From Candidatus Omnitrophota bacterium (lineage in GTDB: Bacteria > Omnitrophota > Gorgyraeia > Gygaellales > Profunditerraquicolaceae): a DNA stretch of 64,000 bases. The stretch is taken from contig JBAZUE010000001.1 of NCBI GenBank assembly GCA_041661605.1, positions 159,467 through 223,466 of the forward strand, written 5' to 3'. Shown here piece by piece: positions 33,840 through 47,538 of this stretch (the stretch's first letter is position 1; each line of letters starts with the position of its first letter). The notes under the pieces were generated by a model that saw only the letters and a list, made by a program, of their open reading frames with translations, ran no database searches and was not told where the DNA came from. A program made the position numbers and the translations under genes.

Positions 33840-34772
33840 ATGATTAAAAATATACTTGTAATACGCAATGACCGGTTTGGGGAGTTTTTACTGAATATCC
33901 CGGCAATGCGCGCGCTGAAAGAGTTATATCCACAGGCAAGACTTACTTTGGCGGTAAGCCCGGCGGTAGTTGAATTGGCAGGCGCGGTTGAATGCGTTGA
34001 TGAGGCAGTGGCATGGGATCAGATCAAGGGGAATTTAAGTAAGCGTAAGTTTGATCTTTGCGTTGTTTTAAATCCTACAAAAGAGGCGCATTGGGCGGCG
34101 TTCTGGGCAGGCATCCCAGTACGCGTTGGGTATAACAGGAAGTGGGGAGTTTTGCTGACGCATAAATTAAAAGATACTAAATGCCTTGGTGATAGGCATG
34201 AAGTGGATTGTAATCTGGAGTTGGTTTCTTTGATTGGCGCAGGAAATAACGGGATTGCTTCGTCGCAAAAAACGCTCCTCGCAATGACGAAGATTGCCAG
34301 TGATAAATTTGATTTTTTAGCTGGAGCGGTTGCGATTCATCCGTTTACCAGCGATCCGCTAAAGCAGTGGCCTGTTGAAAGGTTTATGGAGTTGGCAGAA
34401 AGGATCACGCAGGAGTTGGGAATAAAGGTTGTAATTGTGGGATTGACGATGGGGAGGAGTAAAGAGATTATTTCGGCGCCTCGCAATGACGGGATTGTTG
34501 ATATGGTCAATAAAACTTCTCTTGTTGAGTTAGCCGCGTTATTGAAACGCTGCTCTTTGCTTGTGTCGGGAGATAGCGGGCCGGTGCATTTGGCAGCTTG
34601 CGTGGGTACGCCTGTGGTGGCTTTGTTCAGGAATGACTTGCCGGGGAAAACCAGCCGGCGTTGGGGGCCGTGGGGAGAGGGGCATGTGGTGATTGAAAAG
34701 GGAAATTTGCTTGAGATAAGCGTGGATGAAGTTGCGGGGGAGGCCAAAAGAATAGTCGGGCGTCATTGTTAA
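33840..34772 (+). CDS. GT9 glycosyltransferase (LPS heptosyltransferase family)
   Basis: ILVIRNDRFGEFLLNIPAMRALK N-terminus and SGDSGPVHLAA motif. Contains two in-frame copies of the CTCGCAATGACG repeat. Confidence 0.8.
   Translation: MIKNILVIRNDRFGEFLLNIPAMRALKELYPQARLTLAVSPAVVELAGAVECVDEAVAWDQIKGNLSKRKFDLCVVLNPTKEAHWAAFWAGIPVRVGYNRKWGVLLTHKLKDTKCLGDRHEVDCNLELVSLIGAGNNGIASSQKTLLAMTKIASDKFDFLAGAVAIHPFTSDPLKQWPVERFMELAERITQELGIKVVIVGLTMGRSKEIISAPRNDGIVDMVNKTSLVELAALLKRCSLLVSGDSGPVHLAACVGTPVVALFRNDLPGKTSRRWGPWGEGHVVIEKGNLLEISVDEVAGEAKRIVGRHC
34253..34297 (+). repeat. ATTGCTTCG-spacer-CTCGCAATGACG element, full copy, in frame inside the GT9 CDS
   Basis: gattgcttcgtcgcaaaaaacgctcCTCGCAATGACGaagattgc; core at 34278..34289. 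Encodes GIASSQKTLLAMTKIA. Confidence 0.8.
34472..34497 (+). repeat. CTCGCAATGACG element, partial copy, in frame inside the GT9 CDS
   Basis: ttcggcgcCTCGCAATGACGggattg; core at 34480..34491. Encodes ISAPRNDGI. Confidence 0.75.
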
Positions 34773-41575: not shown

Positions 41576-42667
41576 ATGAGGGTGTTGATTACTTATGCTT
41601 CGGCGGGAGCGGGGCACCGCAGGGCGGCTGAGGCAATATATGGGTATTTAAAAAGCAACCGCAAGGACCTTACGCTTGAGCTGGTTGATGTATTGTCTTT
41701 TACCGGAGGATTCTTTCGTTTTTGCTATAATTCGGGTTATCCGTTTTTAGTGCATTATGCCGTATGGCTTTGGGGATTTTTCTTCTGGTTGACTGAATTC
41801 AGGCTGACCCGGTGGCTTAGCCGTAAATTATCTTTAATTGTAAATTATCTTGGCTGTCGTAGGTTCGTTAGTTATTTAATCAAAGAGGATTTTGATTTTA
41901 TTATTTCCACTCATTTTCTTAATTCAGAGCTGGCCGCAAACTTAAAACTAAGAAATAAAATTCGGGCAAAACTGGTTACGATAATTACGGATTTCGGAGT
42001 GCATCCGTTTTGGGTCTGTCGAGGCACGGATCTTTATATTGCCGCATCAGGCTCAACCAGGGATATATTATTAAAGATGGGGGTTCCGGCTGGCAGGATT
42101 CAAGCTTCCGGTATTCCTGTCAGCCTCAGTTTTACTAAAACTCAAAACAGGGCCCAGTTAGCGCAAAAATTGGGGATAAATGAAAAAAGTTTTACAGTCT
42201 TATTGATGACCGGTTCATTCGGTTCAGGGCCGCTTGAGGAGATCGCCGAGAGTTTTTGCGCTCAGGCGCAGGTGCTGGTAGTCTGCGCGAAAAATAAAAA
42301 ACTTTTTAGCCGCCTGAAAAAGCGGGAATTAAAGAATGTGAAAGTTTTCGGGTTTGTGGATAACGCCGAAGAGCTTATGGGGGTAAGTGATGTTATAATT
42401 ACCAAGCCCGGAGGTTCAAGTATCGCGGAGTTTTTGAATATGGGGTTATTCCCGATATTTATATCGGCTATACCCGGACAGGAGCAGGAGAATATCAGGG
42501 TTTTGTCCGGTTATGGAGTGGGACGTGAGCCAAATAATATCAGGCAGATTAAAGAGCTGGTTATTGAGTTAAAAAACGACCCGCAGAGGTTAGAGGGTTT
42601 AAAAAAGAATATCGCCCAAGCTGCCAAGCCGCTTGCCTGCCAGGAGATATCCAGTGTTATACGCTAA
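41576..42667 (+). CDS. GT28 / MGDG-synthase-family glycosyltransferase (UgtP/MurG-like fold)
   Basis: RVLITYASAGAGHRRAAEAI N-terminus typical of the MGDG_synth domain. C-terminal ITKPGGSSIAE motif. Confidence 0.7.
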   Translation: MRVLITYASAGAGHRRAAEAIYGYLKSNRKDLTLELVDVLSFTGGFFRFCYNSGYPFLVHYAVWLWGFFFWLTEFRLTRWLSRKLSLIVNYLGCRRFVSYLIKEDFDFIISTHFLNSELAANLKLRNKIRAKLVTIITDFGVHPFWVCRGTDLYIAASGSTRDILLKMGVPAGRIQASGIPVSLSFTKTQNRAQLAQKLGINEKSFTVLLMTGSFGSGPLEEIAESFCAQAQVLVVCAKNKKLFSRLKKRELKNVKVFGFVDNAEELMGVSDVIITKPGGSSIAEFLNMGLFPIFISAIPGQEQENIRVLSGYGVGREPNNIRQIKELVIELKNDPQRLEGLKKNIAQAAKPLACQEISSVIR

Positions 42668-44483
42668 GGTTGTATTGGGCCTGCCTATTGACGGGCCGTT
42701 TGATTATTTAGTCCCGCAGGATTTAGAAAATAAGATTTCTATCGGAATAAGAGTATGGGTAAATTTCCGCAACAAAAAAGAAGTAGCCTACGTAACCGGC
42801 TTAAGCAATAAAACCAAAATCAAAAGAATAAAAGAAATTTCAGCGCTTATCGATACAGCGGCTGTTTTGGATGAAAAGATGCTGTTGTTGACCAAGAGGC
42901 TGTCTGAATATTACTGTTGTTCCTGGGGAGAGGCGATTGAGGCGGCGCTTCCGGATGAGTTAAGGAAAGGCAAGGAGATCGGCCTCGCCCCTCTGGGCTC
43001 GGCACTCCCTCGGGCAGTTTGCCCTCGGTCGCTTCTATTTCCTGCGGCGCCTGGCAATGACGCGCTTTTTGTCCAGGGGGTTGAGCGGATGCCGGTTTAT
43101 TTAAGGGAGATCAAAGAAGTCTTAGCTCTTAAGCGTTCGGCGATAGTTTTGTTTAGCGATATCCCGGAGGCAGAAAAGGCTAAGGAGCTAATTGAGAAAG
43201 ATTCAGGCGCGGAGGTTTTCTTGGCATTTCGCAAGCAGCCGGATGAGCTTAAGAGCTGGGAAAAGATCAGGCAGGCGCAGTGTTGCGTTGTTGTCGGGAC
43301 ACGGTCAAATATTTTTTCTCCGGTAAATAACCTGGGTTTAATTATAATTGATCAGGAGCAGGCGCAGGTTTATAAACAGGAGCAGGCACCGCATTATCAT
43401 GCCAGGCAAGTCGCGTTAATGCGCGGGGAGATTTGCGCCGCAAAGGTTGTTTTGGGCAGCCGCATTCCTTCCCTTGAGAGTTTTTACCTTGCGCAAGAGG
43501 ATAAGCTTAAATTTGAAGTTATCCCGGCTAAAGCCGCTTACCCTGAGGTCAAGGTCATCGACGCCCGCCGGCTTTCATACGCGGATAGAAAAAGCAAGCT
43601 CATATTTTCAAAGTTTTTGGCGGATGCGATTTATACAACTTTGAGCGAAAAGGGGAAGGTTTTGTTGTTTATCGAACGCAAGGGTTTTGCAACCAGCGCT
43701 GCCTGCCATAATTGCGGAGCGGCTTTAAAATGCCCGCGTTGCAATATCAACCTGGTATTCCATTTTGATGAAGATAAGTTAAAATGCCATCATTGCAATT
43801 TTAAGATGGATGTGCCTAATATTTGCCCGAGCTGCAATACCGGCTACATTAAATATTCCGGGATAGGCACAGAAAAGGTGGAGAGTGAATTGGCCAAGAT
43901 CTTTCCGCAGGCGCGTATGGATGTAGATATTTTTGTTGCTACCAGTTCAGTAATTAAGCACCAGGATTTGAAGTTTGATTTGATAGGGGTAATGGCGATA
44001 GATAATTCGCTTAACCGGGTGGATTTCCGCGCAGCGGAGAAGACTTTTGGACTGCTTATGGGGCTGGCCAGCTTGACTTCCAAGAAAATGATCATTCAGA
44101 GCGTGAATGTTAACCATCATTGTTTCCAAGCCATAATTAAGAATGACCCGCAGCTTTTCTTGCAAGAAGAGCTGAAGCAGCGCAAACAGTTAAACTTGGC
44201 GCCTTATAAACATATGCTCTTAATAAAACTCAGGGGAATAAACCTGGAGAAGGTTAAGAAAAGCGCCCATGATTTATTTGAAAGGTTAAGCCTGATTAAA
44301 ACCTCCAGTATAAAGATGCTCTCGCTTAATCCCGGCCAGCCGGCTAAATTGCGCGGGAATTTCTATTATCAGATATTAATGCGCGCATCCAGCCCGGAGA
44401 AGGCGAGCCATTTCCTAAAATTACACTTAAAAGAAGGCCATTTTTCGGGTATAATAGTGACAGTTGATATTGATCCTATTTAG
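42633..44483 (+). CDS. priA: Primosomal protein N' (PriA) homologue with degenerate helicase motifs
   Basis: PriA-type N-terminus (VVLGLPIDGPFDYLVPQ). Intact Cys-rich region CHNCGAALKCPRCNINLVFH...CHHCNF...CPSCN. Walker A, Walker B and the arginine motif are not conserved (see findings). An alternative GTG start lies at 42654. Confidence 0.75.
   Translation: MPARRYPVLYAKVVLGLPIDGPFDYLVPQDLENKISIGIRVWVNFRNKKEVAYVTGLSNKTKIKRIKEISALIDTAAVLDEKMLLLTKRLSEYYCCSWGEAIEAALPDELRKGKEIGLAPLGSALPRAVCPRSLLFPAAPGNDALFVQGVERMPVYLREIKEVLALKRSAIVLFSDIPEAEKAKELIEKDSGAEVFLAFRKQPDELKSWEKIRQAQCCVVVGTRSNIFSPVNNLGLIIIDQEQAQVYKQEQAPHYHARQVALMRGEICAAKVVLGSRIPSLESFYLAQEDKLKFEVIPAKAAYPEVKVIDARRLSYADRKSKLIFSKFLADAIYTTLSEKGKVLLFIERKGFATSAACHNCGAALKCPRCNINLVFHFDEDKLKCHHCNFKMDVPNICPSCNTGYIKYSGIGTEKVESELAKIFPQARMDVDIFVATSSVIKHQDLKFDLIGVMAIDNSLNRVDFRAAEKTFGLLMGLASLTSKKMIIQSVNVNHHCFQAIIKNDPQLFLQEELKQRKQLNLAPYKHMLLIKLRGINLEKVKKSAHDLFERLSLIKTSSIKMLSLNPGQPAKLRGNFYYQILMRASSPEKASHFLKLHLKEGHFSGIIVTVDIDPI
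42981..43066 (+). repeat. GC-rich repeat-derived insertion ending in the variant core CTGGCAATGACG, in frame inside priA
   Basis: ggcctcgcccctctgggctcggcactccctcgggcagtttgccctcggtcgcttctatttcctgcggcgcCTGGCAATGACGcgc; core at 43051..43062. Encodes GLAPLGSALPRAVCPRSLLFPAAPGNDA. Confidence 0.6.
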
Positions 44484-44508: not shown

Positions 44509-45443
44509 ATGAAGATTGCATTCTTTGGCAGCGCACATTTCGCGGTCCCCGCACTGAAAGCTTTGATTAAAAGCGGCCATGAGTTGGTTTGCGTGGTTAC
44601 CCAGCCGGATAAGAAGAAGGGCAGGCATTTGCATGTTGCAGGAACTGACGTAAAAAGCACGGCTGTTTCGGCAGGGCTTAAAACATTCCAGCCGGAAGAT
44701 ATTAAAGCTAAGGAAAGCGTAGATTTCCTAAAAAAACTGGAAGCCGAGCTTTTTGTCATTGTGGCTTATGGCCAGGTATTTTCACAGGAGGTCCTGGATA
44801 TCCCGAAGATCATGCCGGTTAATATCCACGCGTCGCTGTTGCCGCGGTACCGCGGGGCAGCCCCTATTAATTGGCGATAATCAACGCGGAGAAGAAGACC
44901 GGAATAAGCATTATATACGTGAGCCTGAAAGTAGACTCGGGCCCGGTTATGCTGCAGAAGGAAATAAAAATTGAAGAAAGCGATAGCGCGATAAGCCTTG
45001 AGGAAAAGCTGCGAAATCTGGGGGCGGAGTTGTTGATGGAGGCCCTTACGATGATTGACAGCAGGAGCTACCGCCTGTTAGAGCAGGATGAAGATAAGGT
45101 AATCCTCGCGCCAAAACTTAAGAAAGAAGACGGTTTAATTGATTGGAGCGCCTCCGCGGCAGATATTCATAATCAGATAAGGGGGGTCTTGCCGTGGCCG
45201 GGGGCTTTTACCTGTTACCGCGGTAAAATTCTTAAAATATTCCAGGCGGATGTCCTGCCGATATTCCCAAATCATAAGCCTGCGCCCGGAGAGGTGGTCA
45301 GGGCGGATAAGCATGAGATTATCGTAGCTTGCGGCAGGGGGTTTTTGAACCTTAAGGAACTGCAGCTGGAAGCAGGCAAGCGTATGTCCGGACAGAATTT
45401 TATCATCGGGCATAAGCTTAAGGTTGGGGATATATTAGTGTGA
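44509..45443 (+). pseudogene. fmt: Methionyl-tRNA formyltransferase interrupted by an apparent 1-nt deletion at about 44874
   Basis: ORF 44509..44880 ends ...NIHASLLPRYRGAAPINWR*. The -1 frame continues AIINAEKKTGISI..., restoring the conserved PINWAIING-type sequence if one G is added after the TGG at 44872-74. Confidence 0.85.
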
Positions 45444-45466
45444 GATTGGCCTCGCAATGACGGGGA
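45444..45466 (+). repeat. CTCGCAATGACG element, partial copy, intergenic after fmt
   Basis: gattggcCTCGCAATGACGgggat; core at 45451..45462. Confidence 0.75.
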
Positions 45467-45512: not shown

Positions 45513-46535
45513 ATGCCAGAATTAAGAAAAGATCCGATTATAGGTAGGTGGGTTATTATCGCCACTGAACGCGCCCGCAGGCCTGACCAGTTCGAAGGCC
45601 ATAAAGAGCCGGACGACCATAGCACCTGTCCATTCTGCGAAGGCAGGGAAGCTAATACTCCTCCGGAGATTTACGCTATCCGGCCGCATAATTCTACGCG
45701 CAACGGGCCGGGCTGGGATTTACGCGTTGTCCCCAGTATCGCGCCTTTTTTAAGGGTTGAAGGGGATTTGGACCGGCGCGGTAATGGTTTATATGACGTG
45801 ATGAACGGCTTGGGAGCTCATGAAGTGGTGATTGAAACCAATCAGCATATCGCCAATATGGCGGATTTGAGCGAAGAGCAGATTACCAAGGTGCTTAATT
45901 GTTATTCCGACAGAATAATTGATTTAGAGAAGGATCACCGGCTTAAATATGTTTTGGTGTTTAAAAATTACGGCAAAGGTTCCGGAGGCGGCTCGATCAG
46001 GCATTCCCGTTCGCAGTTGATCGCGACTCCCGTTAACCCCAAGCGCGTAAAAGAAGAGTTGGCCGGTTCGCGCCAGTATTATGAGTATCATGAGCGCTGT
46101 GTGTTTTGCGATTTGATAACCCAGGAGTTGGCGCAGAAAGAACGCGTAATCGCTGAATTTGACGGTTTTGTGGCGTTAGCCCCGTTTGCGGCGCGTTTTC
46201 CTTTTGAGACCTGGATCCTGCCGAAAAAACATTGTTGTGATTATACCTGTATGGACGCAGATTCCAGAAGTCGCCTGGCCCATGTGCTTAAGACCGTACT
46301 TTCAAAATTAAAGACAGGGTTAAATGACCCGGATTATAATTATATAATTCATACGGCGCCATTCCGCAGGCAGAAGATAGGTTATTGGAAGACTATTGAC
46401 CAGGATTATCATTGGCATATTGAAATCATGCCGCGGCTGTCCAAGGTCGCCGGGTTTGAATGGGGCACGGGTTTTTATATTTGCCCGCTTCCACCTGAAG
46501 AGACAGCTAAATTTTTAAGAGAGGTAAAAGTTTAA
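45513..46535 (+). CDS. GalT-family (HIT-like) nucleotidyltransferase paralogue lacking the His-Pro-His nucleophile (H-S-R)
   Basis: ELRKDPIIGRWVIIA, the CPFCEGRE zinc motif and the YHWHIEIMPR motif are present. The active-site position reads RHSRSQ (46002..46010). Confidence 0.75.
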   Translation: MPELRKDPIIGRWVIIATERARRPDQFEGHKEPDDHSTCPFCEGREANTPPEIYAIRPHNSTRNGPGWDLRVVPSIAPFLRVEGDLDRRGNGLYDVMNGLGAHEVVIETNQHIANMADLSEEQITKVLNCYSDRIIDLEKDHRLKYVLVFKNYGKGSGGGSIRHSRSQLIATPVNPKRVKEELAGSRQYYEYHERCVFCDLITQELAQKERVIAEFDGFVALAPFAARFPFETWILPKKHCCDYTCMDADSRSRLAHVLKTVLSKLKTGLNDPDYNYIIHTAPFRRQKIGYWKTIDQDYHWHIEIMPRLSKVAGFEWGTGFYICPLPPEETAKFLREVKV

Positions 46536-46536
46536 G

Positions 46537-47538
46537 ATGGCAGAATTAAGAAGGGATCCGGTTGTAGGCCGATGGGTGATCGTGGATACGGAACATCCGA
46601 GCAAGCCGGAGGATTTTGAATATGAGCAGTATATTCCCTCGGGCGGATTATGTCCGTTTTGTTACGGCAATGAGTTTATGACTCCTCCTGAAATAAGTTG
46701 TTTTCGCGACCCCTCTACCGGAGCAAACACCCCGGGTTGGCAGGTGCGCGTGGTGGCGAATAAATTTCCCGCTTTGCAGATTGAAGGCGAGCTTGACCGC
46801 CGGGGTTTGGGCATTTACGATATGTCAAACGGCGTAGGCGCGCATGAAGTTTTAGTAGAAAGCCCATACCATAATAAAGATATTCCTGAGCTTCTGCAGG
46901 GGGAGATTGAAAGCTACCTGAAGATGTGTTGTGTCCGGGCGGCGGATTTAAAAAGAGACAGCCGTTTTAAATATATAATGGTATTCCGTAATTATGGGCC
47001 GGCCGCAGGGGCATCTTTAGAGCATCCGCATACGCAGCTGGTTGCTCTTCCCATGGTGCCGAAGAACGCTCTTGAGGAGATACACGGGGCGCGTAATTAT
47101 TATAATTACCGCGAGCGCTGCATATTTTGCGATATAATCCGCCAGGAGGTTTCCGATAAGGCCAGGGTAATTTTAGAGAATAAGTATTTTATTTCTTTCT
47201 GCCCGTTTGTTTCGCGGTTTCCTTTTGAGATCATGATTATGCCTAAACAGCATAGCGGTTATTTCTGCCATATGTCAGGGGATGAAATTTCCGCTTTAGC
47301 GCAGATCATGAAAGATACATTGGGAAAATTAAAAAAAGTATTTGAAAATTTGTCATATAATTATATAATTCATTCTGCACCTATTAATGGTGAGGCTGAC
47401 GTTGAGTATTACCATTGGCATATCGAAATTATGCCTAAGCTGACGCAAGTAGCAGGTTTTGAGTGGGGGACTGGTTTCTACCTTGATCCAACCTCGCCTG
47501 AATTAGCCGCGCAGTATTTAAAAGCCGTAAAAGACTAA
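46537..47538 (+). CDS. GalT-family hexose-1-phosphate nucleotidyltransferase (UDP/ADP-glucose type), catalytic HPH intact
   Basis: ELRRDPVVGRWVIV, CPFCYGNE, LEHPHTQ (47023..47031) and YHWHIEIMPK motifs. Confidence 0.8.
   Translation: MAELRRDPVVGRWVIVDTEHPSKPEDFEYEQYIPSGGLCPFCYGNEFMTPPEISCFRDPSTGANTPGWQVRVVANKFPALQIEGELDRRGLGIYDMSNGVGAHEVLVESPYHNKDIPELLQGEIESYLKMCCVRAADLKRDSRFKYIMVFRNYGPAAGASLEHPHTQLVALPMVPKNALEEIHGARNYYNYRERCIFCDIIRQEVSDKARVILENKYFISFCPFVSRFPFEIMIMPKQHSGYFCHMSGDEISALAQIMKDTLGKLKKVFENLSYNYIIHSAPINGEADVEYYHWHIEIMPKLTQVAGFEWGTGFYLDPTSPELAAQYLKAVKD

Follow-up and report, generated by a model that had tools for sequence, protein, structure and literature searches.

In the 64-kb window (the whole 64,000-nucleotide stretch of DNA analysed here), the priA gene is likely to encode the organism's ordinary, single-copy orthologous replication-restart protein PriA in the form of a natural pseudohelicase, which, judging by sequence and by analogy with known PriA proteins, would recognise forks and recruit the replicative helicase without ATP. 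The original prediction of an ATPase-dead PriA kept as a scaffold or loader is supported by purifying selection, clade-wide conservation, positional orthology, the predicted fold and the DNA-binding residues, the loss of ATPase being read from the motifs.

The priA-like ORF (42633–44483, + strand) is uninterrupted, as first described, and begins mechanically at TTG 42633. The length of 616 aa given at first is less probable: homologues begin at residue 8 of this ORF, equivalent to GTG 42654, and an AGGAG precedes this GTG; therefore, the protein is probably 609 aa long.

42642..42646, + strand: Shine–Dalgarno-like AGGAG, 7 nt upstream of GTG 42654, read from the sequence
42654..44483, + strand: putative priA pseudohelicase coding sequence, 609 aa from GTG 42654, based on the TIGR00595 match, the starts of the homologues and dN/dS

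The protein scored 351.4 bits with the NCBIfam model TIGR00595 (priA), for which the curated equivalog cutoff is 230.35, and a phmmer search against PriA structures gave E = 3e-62. Every PRK05580 sub-model scored under its own cutoff. Pfam detected the 3′ DNA-binding domain (3′BD), the Cys-rich region (CRR) and the C-terminal domain (CTD), and no Pfam DEAD or Helicase_C domain was found in the window PriA. In current annotations, such proteins appear as 'replication restart helicase PriA' or 'primosomal protein N''.

The PriA architecture is kept and includes the 3′-end-binding domain, two RecA-like lobes, the two-zinc Cys-rich region and the C-terminal domain. The following domains and DNA-contacting elements are present.

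42666..42953, + strand: 3′ DNA-binding domain (Pfam PF17764, E = 2.9e-26)
43296..43316, + strand: motif Ib, GTRSNIF, conserved and nearly invariant in alignment A2
43368..43406, + strand: aromatic-rich loop (motif IIa), VYKQEQAPHYHAR, conserved; YKQQEGWRYHAR in E. coli
43704..43835, + strand: Cys-rich region with four CxxC pairs forming two zinc sites (Pfam PF18319)
44202..44477, + strand: PriA C-terminal domain (Pfam PF18074, E = 5.9e-11; pLDDT >90)

The N-terminal DNA-binding-like region and the four CxxC pairs are thus both kept, as the original prediction stated. The pocket residues D24, Y25 and K67, which correspond to the 3′BD pocket residues D17, Y18 and K61 described for E. coli PriA (PMC5778457), are invariant in alignment A1, and the eight Cys of the CRR are invariant in all 112 of the 112 homologues. 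The aromatic-rich loop, which contacts fork DNA (PMC5175346), keeps the YKQ..YHAR pattern, and motif IV (RKGFA) is conserved in the window PriA. Based on these alignments, the predicted contacts with fork DNA, namely those of the D/Y/K pocket, of motif Ib and of the aromatic-rich loop, are retained.

The AF2 model obtained from a 112-sequence alignment (pLDDT 92.1, pTM 0.90) confidently predicts a bilobed RecA-like SF2 core fold; it superseded an earlier AlphaFold run with 20 close homologues (pLDDT 58, lobe 2 unresolved). Foldseek matched the model to fork-bound E. coli PriA 8FAK (chain H; TM 0.87, E = 1e-52) and to the E. coli winged-helix-deletion PriA 6DCR (TM 0.72).

It is unlikely that the protein has been repurposed from restart, for example, to serve repair or regulation as a structure-specific DNA-binding factor, or to take a part in the host-dependent lifestyle reported for Omnitrophota. 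There is room for such a change, since the winged helix and, apparently, the enzymatic activity have been lost and the sequence has diverged by ~60–70% from canonical PriA, but the modules for fork recognition and primosome function (the 3′BD pocket, the aromatic-rich loop, the CRR and the CTD) are the best-conserved parts of the protein. Moreover, the ancestral priA–fmt linkage is kept, and no other priA is evident in the 64-kb window.

The genes on either side of priA belong to a conserved neighbourhood.

41576..42667, + strand: MGDG-synthase-like glycosyltransferase gene, upstream, in conserved synteny, overlapping the start of priA by 14 nt
44509..45443, + strand: fmt (methionyl-tRNA formyltransferase), downstream, a conserved neighbour of priA, apparently split by a 1-nt deletion near 44872

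The MGDG-synthase-like gene and priA are probably co-transcribed; a scan for promoters and terminators around priA gave signals no better than shuffles. The order HAD / MGDG-synthase / priA / fmt was found at the loci of canonical Omnitrophota PriAs (L058, L071 and L072), and the slot is identical at the loci of degenerate PriAs (the window, L001, L002, L073 and L074). Since canonical and degenerate PriAs occupy the same slot, the comparison indicates the degeneration of an orthologue in situ and not a duplication. A diverged extra paralogue that has acquired a new function alongside a canonical priA elsewhere in the genome is, consequently, quite improbable. In MAGs labelled as Omnitrophota, PriAs do fall into a canonical class (~665 aa) and a degenerate one (~610 aa), which would suit such a paralogue, but the shared MGDG-synthase / fmt slot argues for orthologous replacement; in addition, no second PriA was found in the 64-kb window, and no MAG with both types was found among the 67 loci L003–L069.

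The ATP-site motifs are preserved only as remnants.

43074..43100, + strand: motif I (Walker A) remnant QGVERMPVY, aligned to E. coli 226-TGSGKTEVY-234
43350..43361, + strand: motif II (Walker B) remnant DQEQ, aligned to E. coli DEEH 320–323
43455..43472, + strand: motif III remnant GSRIPS, in place of GSATPS (GSATPA/S)
43935..43961, + strand: motif V remnant VATSSVIKH, in place of IGTQMLAKG
44055..44084, + strand: motif VI remnant LMGLASLTSK, in place of TQVAGRAGRAGK, with 5 residues deleted and two arginines lost

The changes first reported for Walker A, Walker B, GSATPS and the late arginine motif (LMGLASL) were all located at these positions. The wider claim that every ATPase/helicase motif is degenerate holds for the ATP site but not for the DNA-contacting motif Ib, aromatic-rich loop and motif IV, which are conserved. 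In the alignment to E. coli PriA, K230 is replaced by R152 and T231 by M153, the motif II remnant keeps D240 and E242 and has lost the catalytic E321 (E. coli numbering), and QVAGRAGR of motif VI reads GLASLTSK; motifs Ia and V are partly lost. Compared with the E. coli protein, the winged-helix domain and residues about 181–222 are deleted, and a further deletion removes about 24 residues of lobe 2 after 'FPQAR'. Of motifs I, II, III and VI, the residues for adenine and phosphate binding and for catalysis are gone, and so is the segment before Walker A. The sequences GxGKT (motif I), DEEH (motif II) and QxxGRxGR (motif VI) that characterise PriA-family SF2 ATPases are lacking in the protein, and a displaced intact Walker A or B, or any P-loop, DExH or GRxGR pattern, was found neither elsewhere in the ORF nor in the other five frames. 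The residues that have replaced those of the motifs are themselves conserved in the homologues. For instance, the Arg at the K230 position is invariant in alignment A1 and occurs in 48 of the 97 degenerate representatives, and the residue following this conserved Arg in degenerate PriAs is usually Trp.

With these motifs, the window PriA would be unable to bind or hydrolyse ATP, and unwinding and translocation would therefore be lost as well. PriAs of the degenerate type that are annotated as helicases are almost certainly not helicases. That the protein still acts as an NTPase or helicase, using non-canonical residues or the weak second nucleotide site proposed for E. coli PriA (PMC5778457), is very improbable: the conserved Arg at the K230 position and the remaining D240 and E242 of motif II speak for it, but the P-loop, T231, E321, motif III, the motif VI arginines and the pre-Walker A segment are gone, and K230R by itself abolishes the ATPase of E. 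coli PriA (PMC5778457).

As far as the compared sequences indicate, the loss of the ATPase motifs is conserved across a large Omnitrophota clade. More than 120 homologue clusters were found at 67–94% identity and hundreds of clusters with the same motif loss, and in both sets every named cluster belongs to Omnitrophota, the taxonomy being taken from genome-collection titles and source names. A set of 67 species-level genome loci (L003–L069) extends the identity range down to 30%. The gene is degenerate in all but one of the 60 full-length genes tabulated from genome loci, and so are 97 of 164 diverse PriA representatives. A second subfamily is likewise from Omnitrophota wherever the source is named. 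The neighbour-joining tree suggests a single origin of degenerate PriA with moderate support (80/100), although fast-evolving sequences may attract each other. In the limited collection of literature that was searched, no paper on Omnitrophota PriA was found.

The dN/dS values of the whole gene against close relatives were 0.10, 0.09 and 0.12 at dS of 0.26, 0.38 and 0.86, respectively, at which dS is unsaturated. The check for purifying selection proposed with the original prediction thus gave a positive answer. The values for the separate folded domains were 0.0–0.18 (0.0–0.10 for the CRR), against 0.6–1.6 for the linker; strong purifying selection acts on all folded domains, and neutral evolution is confined to the linker. 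The reading frame is intact in the window, and only a few of the 60-odd related genes do not form a single intact ORF, so that neither a broken frame nor a dN/dS near 1, the marks of a pseudogene, was observed. The divergence of degenerate PriA is ~1.26 times that of Fmt, a ratio whose canonical comparison consists of three loci, one of them misclassified. A recently inactivated priA, i.e., a neutrally evolving gene on its way to becoming a pseudogene, as the loss of all ATPase motifs and the frameshift in the neighbouring fmt could hint, is virtually excluded, since the motif loss is common to relatives down to 30% identity, dN/dS is ~0.1, the frame and the substituted motif residues are conserved, and fmt is intact in relatives and is restored in the window by one added G.

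The linker between the 3′BD and lobe 1 is unconstrained; copies of a small GC-rich repeat have entered it repeatedly and in frame.

42969..43067, + strand: hypervariable linker, which, in the alignment to E. coli PriA, substitutes for the winged-helix domain and the segment before Walker A
42975..43064, + strand: GC-rich repeat copy, long form, 90 nt (30 codons in frame, 65% GC), encoding EIGLAPLGSALPRAVCPRSLLFPAAPGNDA

This linker of ~33 residues is indel-rich in alignment A1 and has a pLDDT of <50. The winged helix, located between the 3′BD and lobe 1 in other PriAs, is absent from the window PriA. Canonical Omnitrophota PriAs of about 665 aa, in which every motif is present, lack it too, and therefore the winged helix is not universal in the PriA family. 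Intermediate sequences suggest that its loss came before those of motif VI and the P-loop. The GC-rich insertion originally noticed upstream of Walker A is indeed repeat-derived, but it is 90 nt long instead of ~85 nt; it represents one copy, in frame, of a small GC-rich repeat dispersed in the genome. The window contains 6 occurrences of its 13-nt 3′ core, CCTSGCAATGACG, compared with 0.09 expected. BLAST and a repeat search revealed no second long copy within the window, where only the 3′ core recurs. The insert is 95% identical at the nucleotide level to the priA linker of L012, though the whole genes are only 73% identical. Other species carry long copies in their priA linkers, and an intergenic copy is located at L014 6943–7022. 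Rickettsia palindromic elements are inserted in frame within protein-coding genes. Like them, the Omnitrophota repeat is small, dispersed and found both between genes and in frame at a tolerant site, here the priA linker; it differs from them in sequence family and host.

For the pseudohelicase reading, we propose the following course of restart. Abandoned forks and D-loops would be recognised by their structure, and the bound PriA would serve as a platform recruiting the replicative helicase with its loader onto lagging-strand template DNA. A precedent for this recruitment is E. coli PriA K230R in the PriA–PriB pathway, as the priA300 (K230R) product has no ATPase and still supports restart in vivo and in vitro (PMC5778457). 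Another precedent is D. radiodurans PriA, which is without ATPase and helicase activity, binds fork DNA and DnaB (PMC4504706) and apparently recruits by direct contact with DnaB. The two dead lobes may have been kept because they form a DNA-binding surface or pore and position the CRR and the CTD. A DnaB or a loader (DciA, DnaC) was not identified in the 64-kb window, and we know of no PriB-like partner in Omnitrophota.

More speculatively, the only PriA of a major radiation within Omnitrophota may have become, independently of Deinococcus-Thermus, a fork sensor and helicase-loading scaffold that obligately works without ATP and re-uses its former nucleotide pocket, a scenario that we consider possible but doubtful. 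In such a pocket, the acidic residue still present in motif II could fix the lobes in a fork-bound 'open pore' conformation or, alternatively, could form a new partner-binding site.

If this scenario is true, restart in these bacteria would proceed without a PriA motor and possibly without a PriB-like accessory protein. On the pseudohelicase reading, nature would offer in the degenerate PriAs a second group of motor-less PriAs, which far exceeds that of Deinococcus-Thermus in size, departs more radically from the canonical form and has canonical orthologues in the same phylum. Whether PriA alone can restart replication without its motor and without partners of the PriB/DnaT/DnaD type is an open question (PMC5778457), to which this set would provide a comparative handle. 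It may also point to the parts that selection keeps once ATP hydrolysis is dispensable, namely the 3′BD pocket, motif Ib, the aromatic-rich loop, the CRR, the CTD and the lobe scaffolds. In addition, the degenerate PriAs are compact proteins for structural and biochemical work.

With canonical PriA (4NL4, 6DGD, 8FAK and the E. coli winged-helix deletion 6DCR), the window PriA shares the domain order, the predicted fold and the linkage to fmt, as well as the 3′BD pocket, motif Ib, the aromatic-rich loop, motif IV, the eight-Cys CRR and the CTD. It differs from E. coli PriA in lacking the ATPase motifs and the winged helix and is about 120 residues shorter. The E. coli variants K230R (priA300) and K230A/D resemble the state proposed here in that an inactive ATP site coexists with fork recognition and primosome assembly, and K230R has Arg at the same position. 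However, they are laboratory point mutants, need PriB, DnaT and DnaC and derive from a canonical 732-aa protein that has a winged helix, whereas the Omnitrophota state is natural and ancient and involves deletions.

Reviews of replication restart describe the PriA helicase motifs as conserved across bacteria with Deinococcus-Thermus as the sole exception (PMC5778457), an exception also described for the Deinococcus-Thermus protein itself (PMC4504706). The activities of the latter are known from biochemistry, and its Omnitrophota counterpart is known from sequence and a model. In both, the Walker A lysine is replaced by arginine (R152 in the window PriA), Walker B is degenerate (DQEQ here) and the changes are conserved across a large lineage, which in Deinococcus-Thermus is a group at the phylum level, the combination by which a pseudohelicase is recognised. 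The origin of the Omnitrophota type appears to be independent of Deinococcus-Thermus, because, among the sequences compared, which included none from Deinococcus or Thermus, its nearest canonical, synteny-sharing relatives are Omnitrophota PriAs. The Omnitrophota proteins go beyond those of Deinococcus-Thermus in that the whole glycine-rich P-loop, motif III and both arginines of motif VI are gone, and the deletions comprise the pre-Walker A segment, the winged-helix domain and ~24 residues of lobe 2.

The priA reading frame (42633..44483, + strand) is uninterrupted, as stated in the original prediction, while its length of 616 aa probably needs revision. The N-termini of all homologues match the residue encoded by GTG 42654 (VLYAKV here, MLYAKV in relatives), and AGGAG lies 7 nt upstream of this codon. 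Based on these two features, the true PriA product is probably 609 aa long, so that 14 nt would be shared with the upstream glycosyltransferase gene. Pfam matches were found for the PriA 3′ DNA-binding domain (3′BD; residues 12–107, E = 2.9e-26), the PriA Cys-rich zinc ribbon and the PriA C-terminal domain, and none in this protein for DEAD, ResIII or Helicase_C. The NCBIfam priA equivalog TIGR00595 scored 351 bits (cutoff 230), and the closest solved structures were those of K. pneumoniae and E. coli PriA (E = 3e-62).

The motif states were read by alignment to E. coli PriA:

43074–43100, +: Walker A, 226-TGSGKTEVY in E. coli, QGVERMPVY here (K230 to R152, T231 to M153)
Motif Ia: VPEIGLT in E. 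coli, FSDIPEA here
43350–43361, +: Walker B, DEEH (320–323) in E. coli, DQEQ here
43455–43472, +: motif III, GSATP in E. coli, GSRIP here
43935–43961, +: motif V, GTQM in E. coli, ATSS here
44055–44084, +: motif VI, QVAGRAGR in E. coli, GLASLTSK here; five residues deleted, both arginines gone

The earlier readings of Walker A, Walker B, GSRIPS and the late arginine motif, as well as of the kept Cys-rich pairs, were thus confirmed by the alignment. Intact Walker motifs do not lie elsewhere, since no P-loop, DExH or GRxGR pattern was found in any part of the ORF or of the five alternative frames. The protein also lacks the winged-helix domain (E. coli about 110–180) and the pre-Walker A stretch (about 181–222, including the LNTEQ segment), for which a linker of ~33 residues (42969..43067, between 3′BD and lobe 1) stands in, and about 24 residues of lobe 2 after FPQAR. 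The claim that every helicase motif is degenerate holds for the ATP-site motifs and not for motifs Ib (GTRSNIF) and IV (RKGFA), both of which are kept. Also retained are the 3′-end pocket (E. coli D17, Y18 and K61, here D24, Y25 and K67; invariant in relatives), all eight cysteines of the Cys-rich region, and the aromatic-rich loop beside motif II (YKQ..YHAR), which in E. coli PriA crosslinks to the fork junction (PMC5175346).

Omnitrophota also possess a large class of canonical PriA proteins (660–690 aa) with every motif and with DEAD and Helicase_C Pfam matches, which likewise lack the winged helix. Both classes share the neighbourhood GT9 / DegT / GT2 / HAD phosphatase / MGDG-synthase / priA / (def) / fmt / GalT-like x2 / GAPDH / PGK, found with canonical priA in the relatives' loci L058, L071 and L072, and with degenerate priA in the window and in L001, L002, L073 and L074. 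The shared position speaks for the degenerate gene being the native priA of its lineage, changed in situ, and against a duplicate kept beside a canonical copy. An extra paralogue coexisting with a canonical priA elsewhere in the genome is improbable, given that both classes occupy the same conserved place and that no second PriA is present within the 64-kb window.

In a neighbour-joining tree, the smallest clade with all 81 core degenerate sequences was free of canonical ones in 80/100 bootstraps, and partly degenerate sequences of 650–670 aa nest inside it. The partly degenerate homologue P0168 has AKTEVY, DEEH, GSQTPS and GTQM and has lost motif VI. These results are consistent with one loss that proceeded in steps, from the winged helix to the ATP site; the method is crude, and long-branch attraction is possible.

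Some further features of the locus should be mentioned. A uracil-DNA glycosylase gene lies between MGDG-synthase and priA in two of the three canonical loci (L071, 4297–5004; L072, 4306–4983) and is absent from that spot in L058, the third one examined; in degenerate lineages these two genes overlap directly (window 42667/42654), with no such gene between. The gene directly 3′ of priA, fmt (44509–45443), is broken into two ORFs where one nucleotide is missing from a G run near 44872–44874 (AATTGGGCG in L001 versus AATTGGCG in the window). One added G restores a 311-aa Fmt, and fmt is intact in relatives; either an error in sequencing or assembly or a true frameshift, in a gene that is usually important, would account for the split. 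The tandem GalT-like paralogues 3′ of fmt (DUF4921/DUF4931, HIT-type; 45513–46535 and 46537–47538) are syntenic across the phylum, and the two copies share a 77-nt stretch at 70% identity. An intergenic motif occurs seven times in the window versus 1.0 expected, with two divergent pairs and one copy 53 nt upstream of the first gene of the priA operon; it includes a −35-like TTGTAA and so probably serves as a common promoter or regulatory element:

38589, 41523, 51118(−), 51152, 58096(−), 58145 and 1124: intergenic motif AATTGTTTTGTAAC

Selection was assessed by NG86 on codon alignments with the closest species:

L004: dN 0.027, dS 0.26, dN/dS 0.10
L003: dN 0.035, dS 0.38, dN/dS 0.09
L005: dN 0.10, dS 0.86, dN/dS 0.12

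By domain, dN/dS was 0.0–0.18 in 3′BD, both former RecA lobes, the Cys-rich region and the C-terminal domain; the linker alone was neutral (0.6–1.6). The substituted motif residues are themselves conserved in relatives (QG.eRMPVYL, IIDQEqdQVYKQEQ.PHYHAR, LLmGL.SLTSKkmIIQS). Given this purifying selection and conservation, priA here is not a decaying gene, and a recent inactivation, one branch of the original prediction, is rejected. The other branch, an ATPase-dead PriA retained as a scaffold or loader, is supported.

Most of the linker is encoded by an insert of 30 codons (42975–43064) with 65% GC, the 2-kb averages of the window being 33 to 47%. The L012 linker contains the same sequence (60 nt at 95% nucleotide identity), although the two priA genes as a whole are only 73% identical in nucleotide sequence and saturated at synonymous sites. 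Other copies lie in the priA linkers of L004, L005, L015 and L055, and an intergenic copy was found in L014 (6943–7022). The general shape of the repeat is AGATTGCTTCG-N-CCTCGCAATGACGrGG, and its 13-nt 3′ core occurs six times in the window versus 0.09 expected:

34277, 34479, 36105, 43050, 45450 and 58358, all +: core CCTSGCAATGACG

These copies and this recurring core bear out the proposed repeat origin of the insertion. In the window, copies are intergenic and in frame within genes (two in ORF 33840–34772, one in priA); a short form of 23 nt (45442–45464) corresponds to the ~85-nt long form in L014. In the priA linker of L045 (3370–3470), the core is repeated four times in tandem, and in L003, the nearest species (91% nucleotide identity), the linker differs. 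The linker is a neutrally evolving site at which a small dispersed repeat can land, reminiscent of the in-frame Rickettsia palindromic elements. As for base composition, G+C of the window changes from about 0.38 to about 0.44–0.47 near 34 kb (about 34000) and is higher thereafter to the end, and GC skew is positive throughout.

A word-indexed search returned >120 clusters (67–94% identity, about 600–635 aa) with the same three Pfam domains; where a source was named, all were Candidatus Omnitrophota/Omnitrophica MAGs. Scanning one genome per GTDB species gave 67 loci (L003–L069) with 94% down to 30% identity, their records being Omnitrophota MAGs save some titled "uncultured Planctomycetales" and one "bacterium". 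The motifs were absent in all but one (L058) of the 60 full-length genes tabulated from these loci. Among the best 150 matches listed from an exhaustive HMMER search over 50%-identity representatives, ~90 were about 600–650 aa long and lacked GxGKT and motif VI. A set of 164 diverse sequences comprised 97 degenerate, 63 canonical and 4 intermediate ones. In the degenerate class, the K230 position is Arg in 48/97 and the next residue Trp in 50/97; R584 is replaced by Leu, Met or Ile, and R587 is deleted in 89/97. A second subfamily (represented by P0154), 36% identical to the query protein, was all Omnitrophota where the source was named. Two different degenerate priA genes from separate contigs (L026 and L055; 69% and 61% identical to the query) belong to the one MAG JAZDEW01; a mixed bin, rather than a true duplication, is the simplest explanation.

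The AlphaFold2 model (112-sequence alignment) had a mean pLDDT of 92.1 and pTM of 0.90, the linker being its sole disordered part. In Foldseek, PriA structures ranked far above any other helicase: E. coli PriA in the PriA/PriB/fork cryo-EM complex (8FAK chain H; TM 0.87, E = 1e-52), ADP-bound K. pneumoniae PriA (4NL4; TM 0.73) and E. coli winged-helix-deletion PriA (6DCR; TM 0.72). From this confident model and these matches, we predict that the scaffold is intact in both RecA-like lobes, in the zinc region and in the C-terminal domain. That the fork-bound state gives the better fit is suggestive, and we draw no conclusion from it.

E. coli PriA K230R (priA300) is devoid of ATPase, helicase and translocase activity, yet restart in vivo and assembly of the primosome in vitro still proceed with it via the PriA–PriB route (PMC5778457). 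On the fork, E. coli PriA is reshaped into a pore around lagging-strand ssDNA, and its Cys-rich region is exposed for partner docking (PMC10175261). From its conserved residues, we suggest that the present protein would recognize abandoned forks and D-loops via the 3′BD pocket, motif Ib and the aromatic-rich loop on dead lobes. The replicative helicase, its loader and SSB may then dock on the Cys-rich region and C-terminal domain as a platform, both steps being predicted to proceed without ATP hydrolysis.

PriA pseudohelicases have been described before, to date in Deinococcus-Thermus alone: D. radiodurans PriA, with degenerate Walker A (K to R) and Walker B, has no ATPase or helicase activity and binds fork DNA and its DnaB (PMC4504706). 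Among the full texts searched, we found no report on Omnitrophota PriA or primosome or on further pseudohelicase PriAs. A specialist would regard the present case as notable rather than startling; it offers a useful natural experiment on whether replication can restart without a motor and possibly without accessory proteins. Among pseudohelicase PriAs, those of Omnitrophota form a new, more extreme variant. Unlike the Deinococcus-Thermus protein, they have lost the whole P-loop and not the lysine alone, together with motifs III and VI and the pre-Walker A segment; they also carry two deletions, lack the winged helix and have canonical orthologues within the same phylum. Judging by synteny and nearest relatives, we infer that they arose independently of the Deinococcus case.
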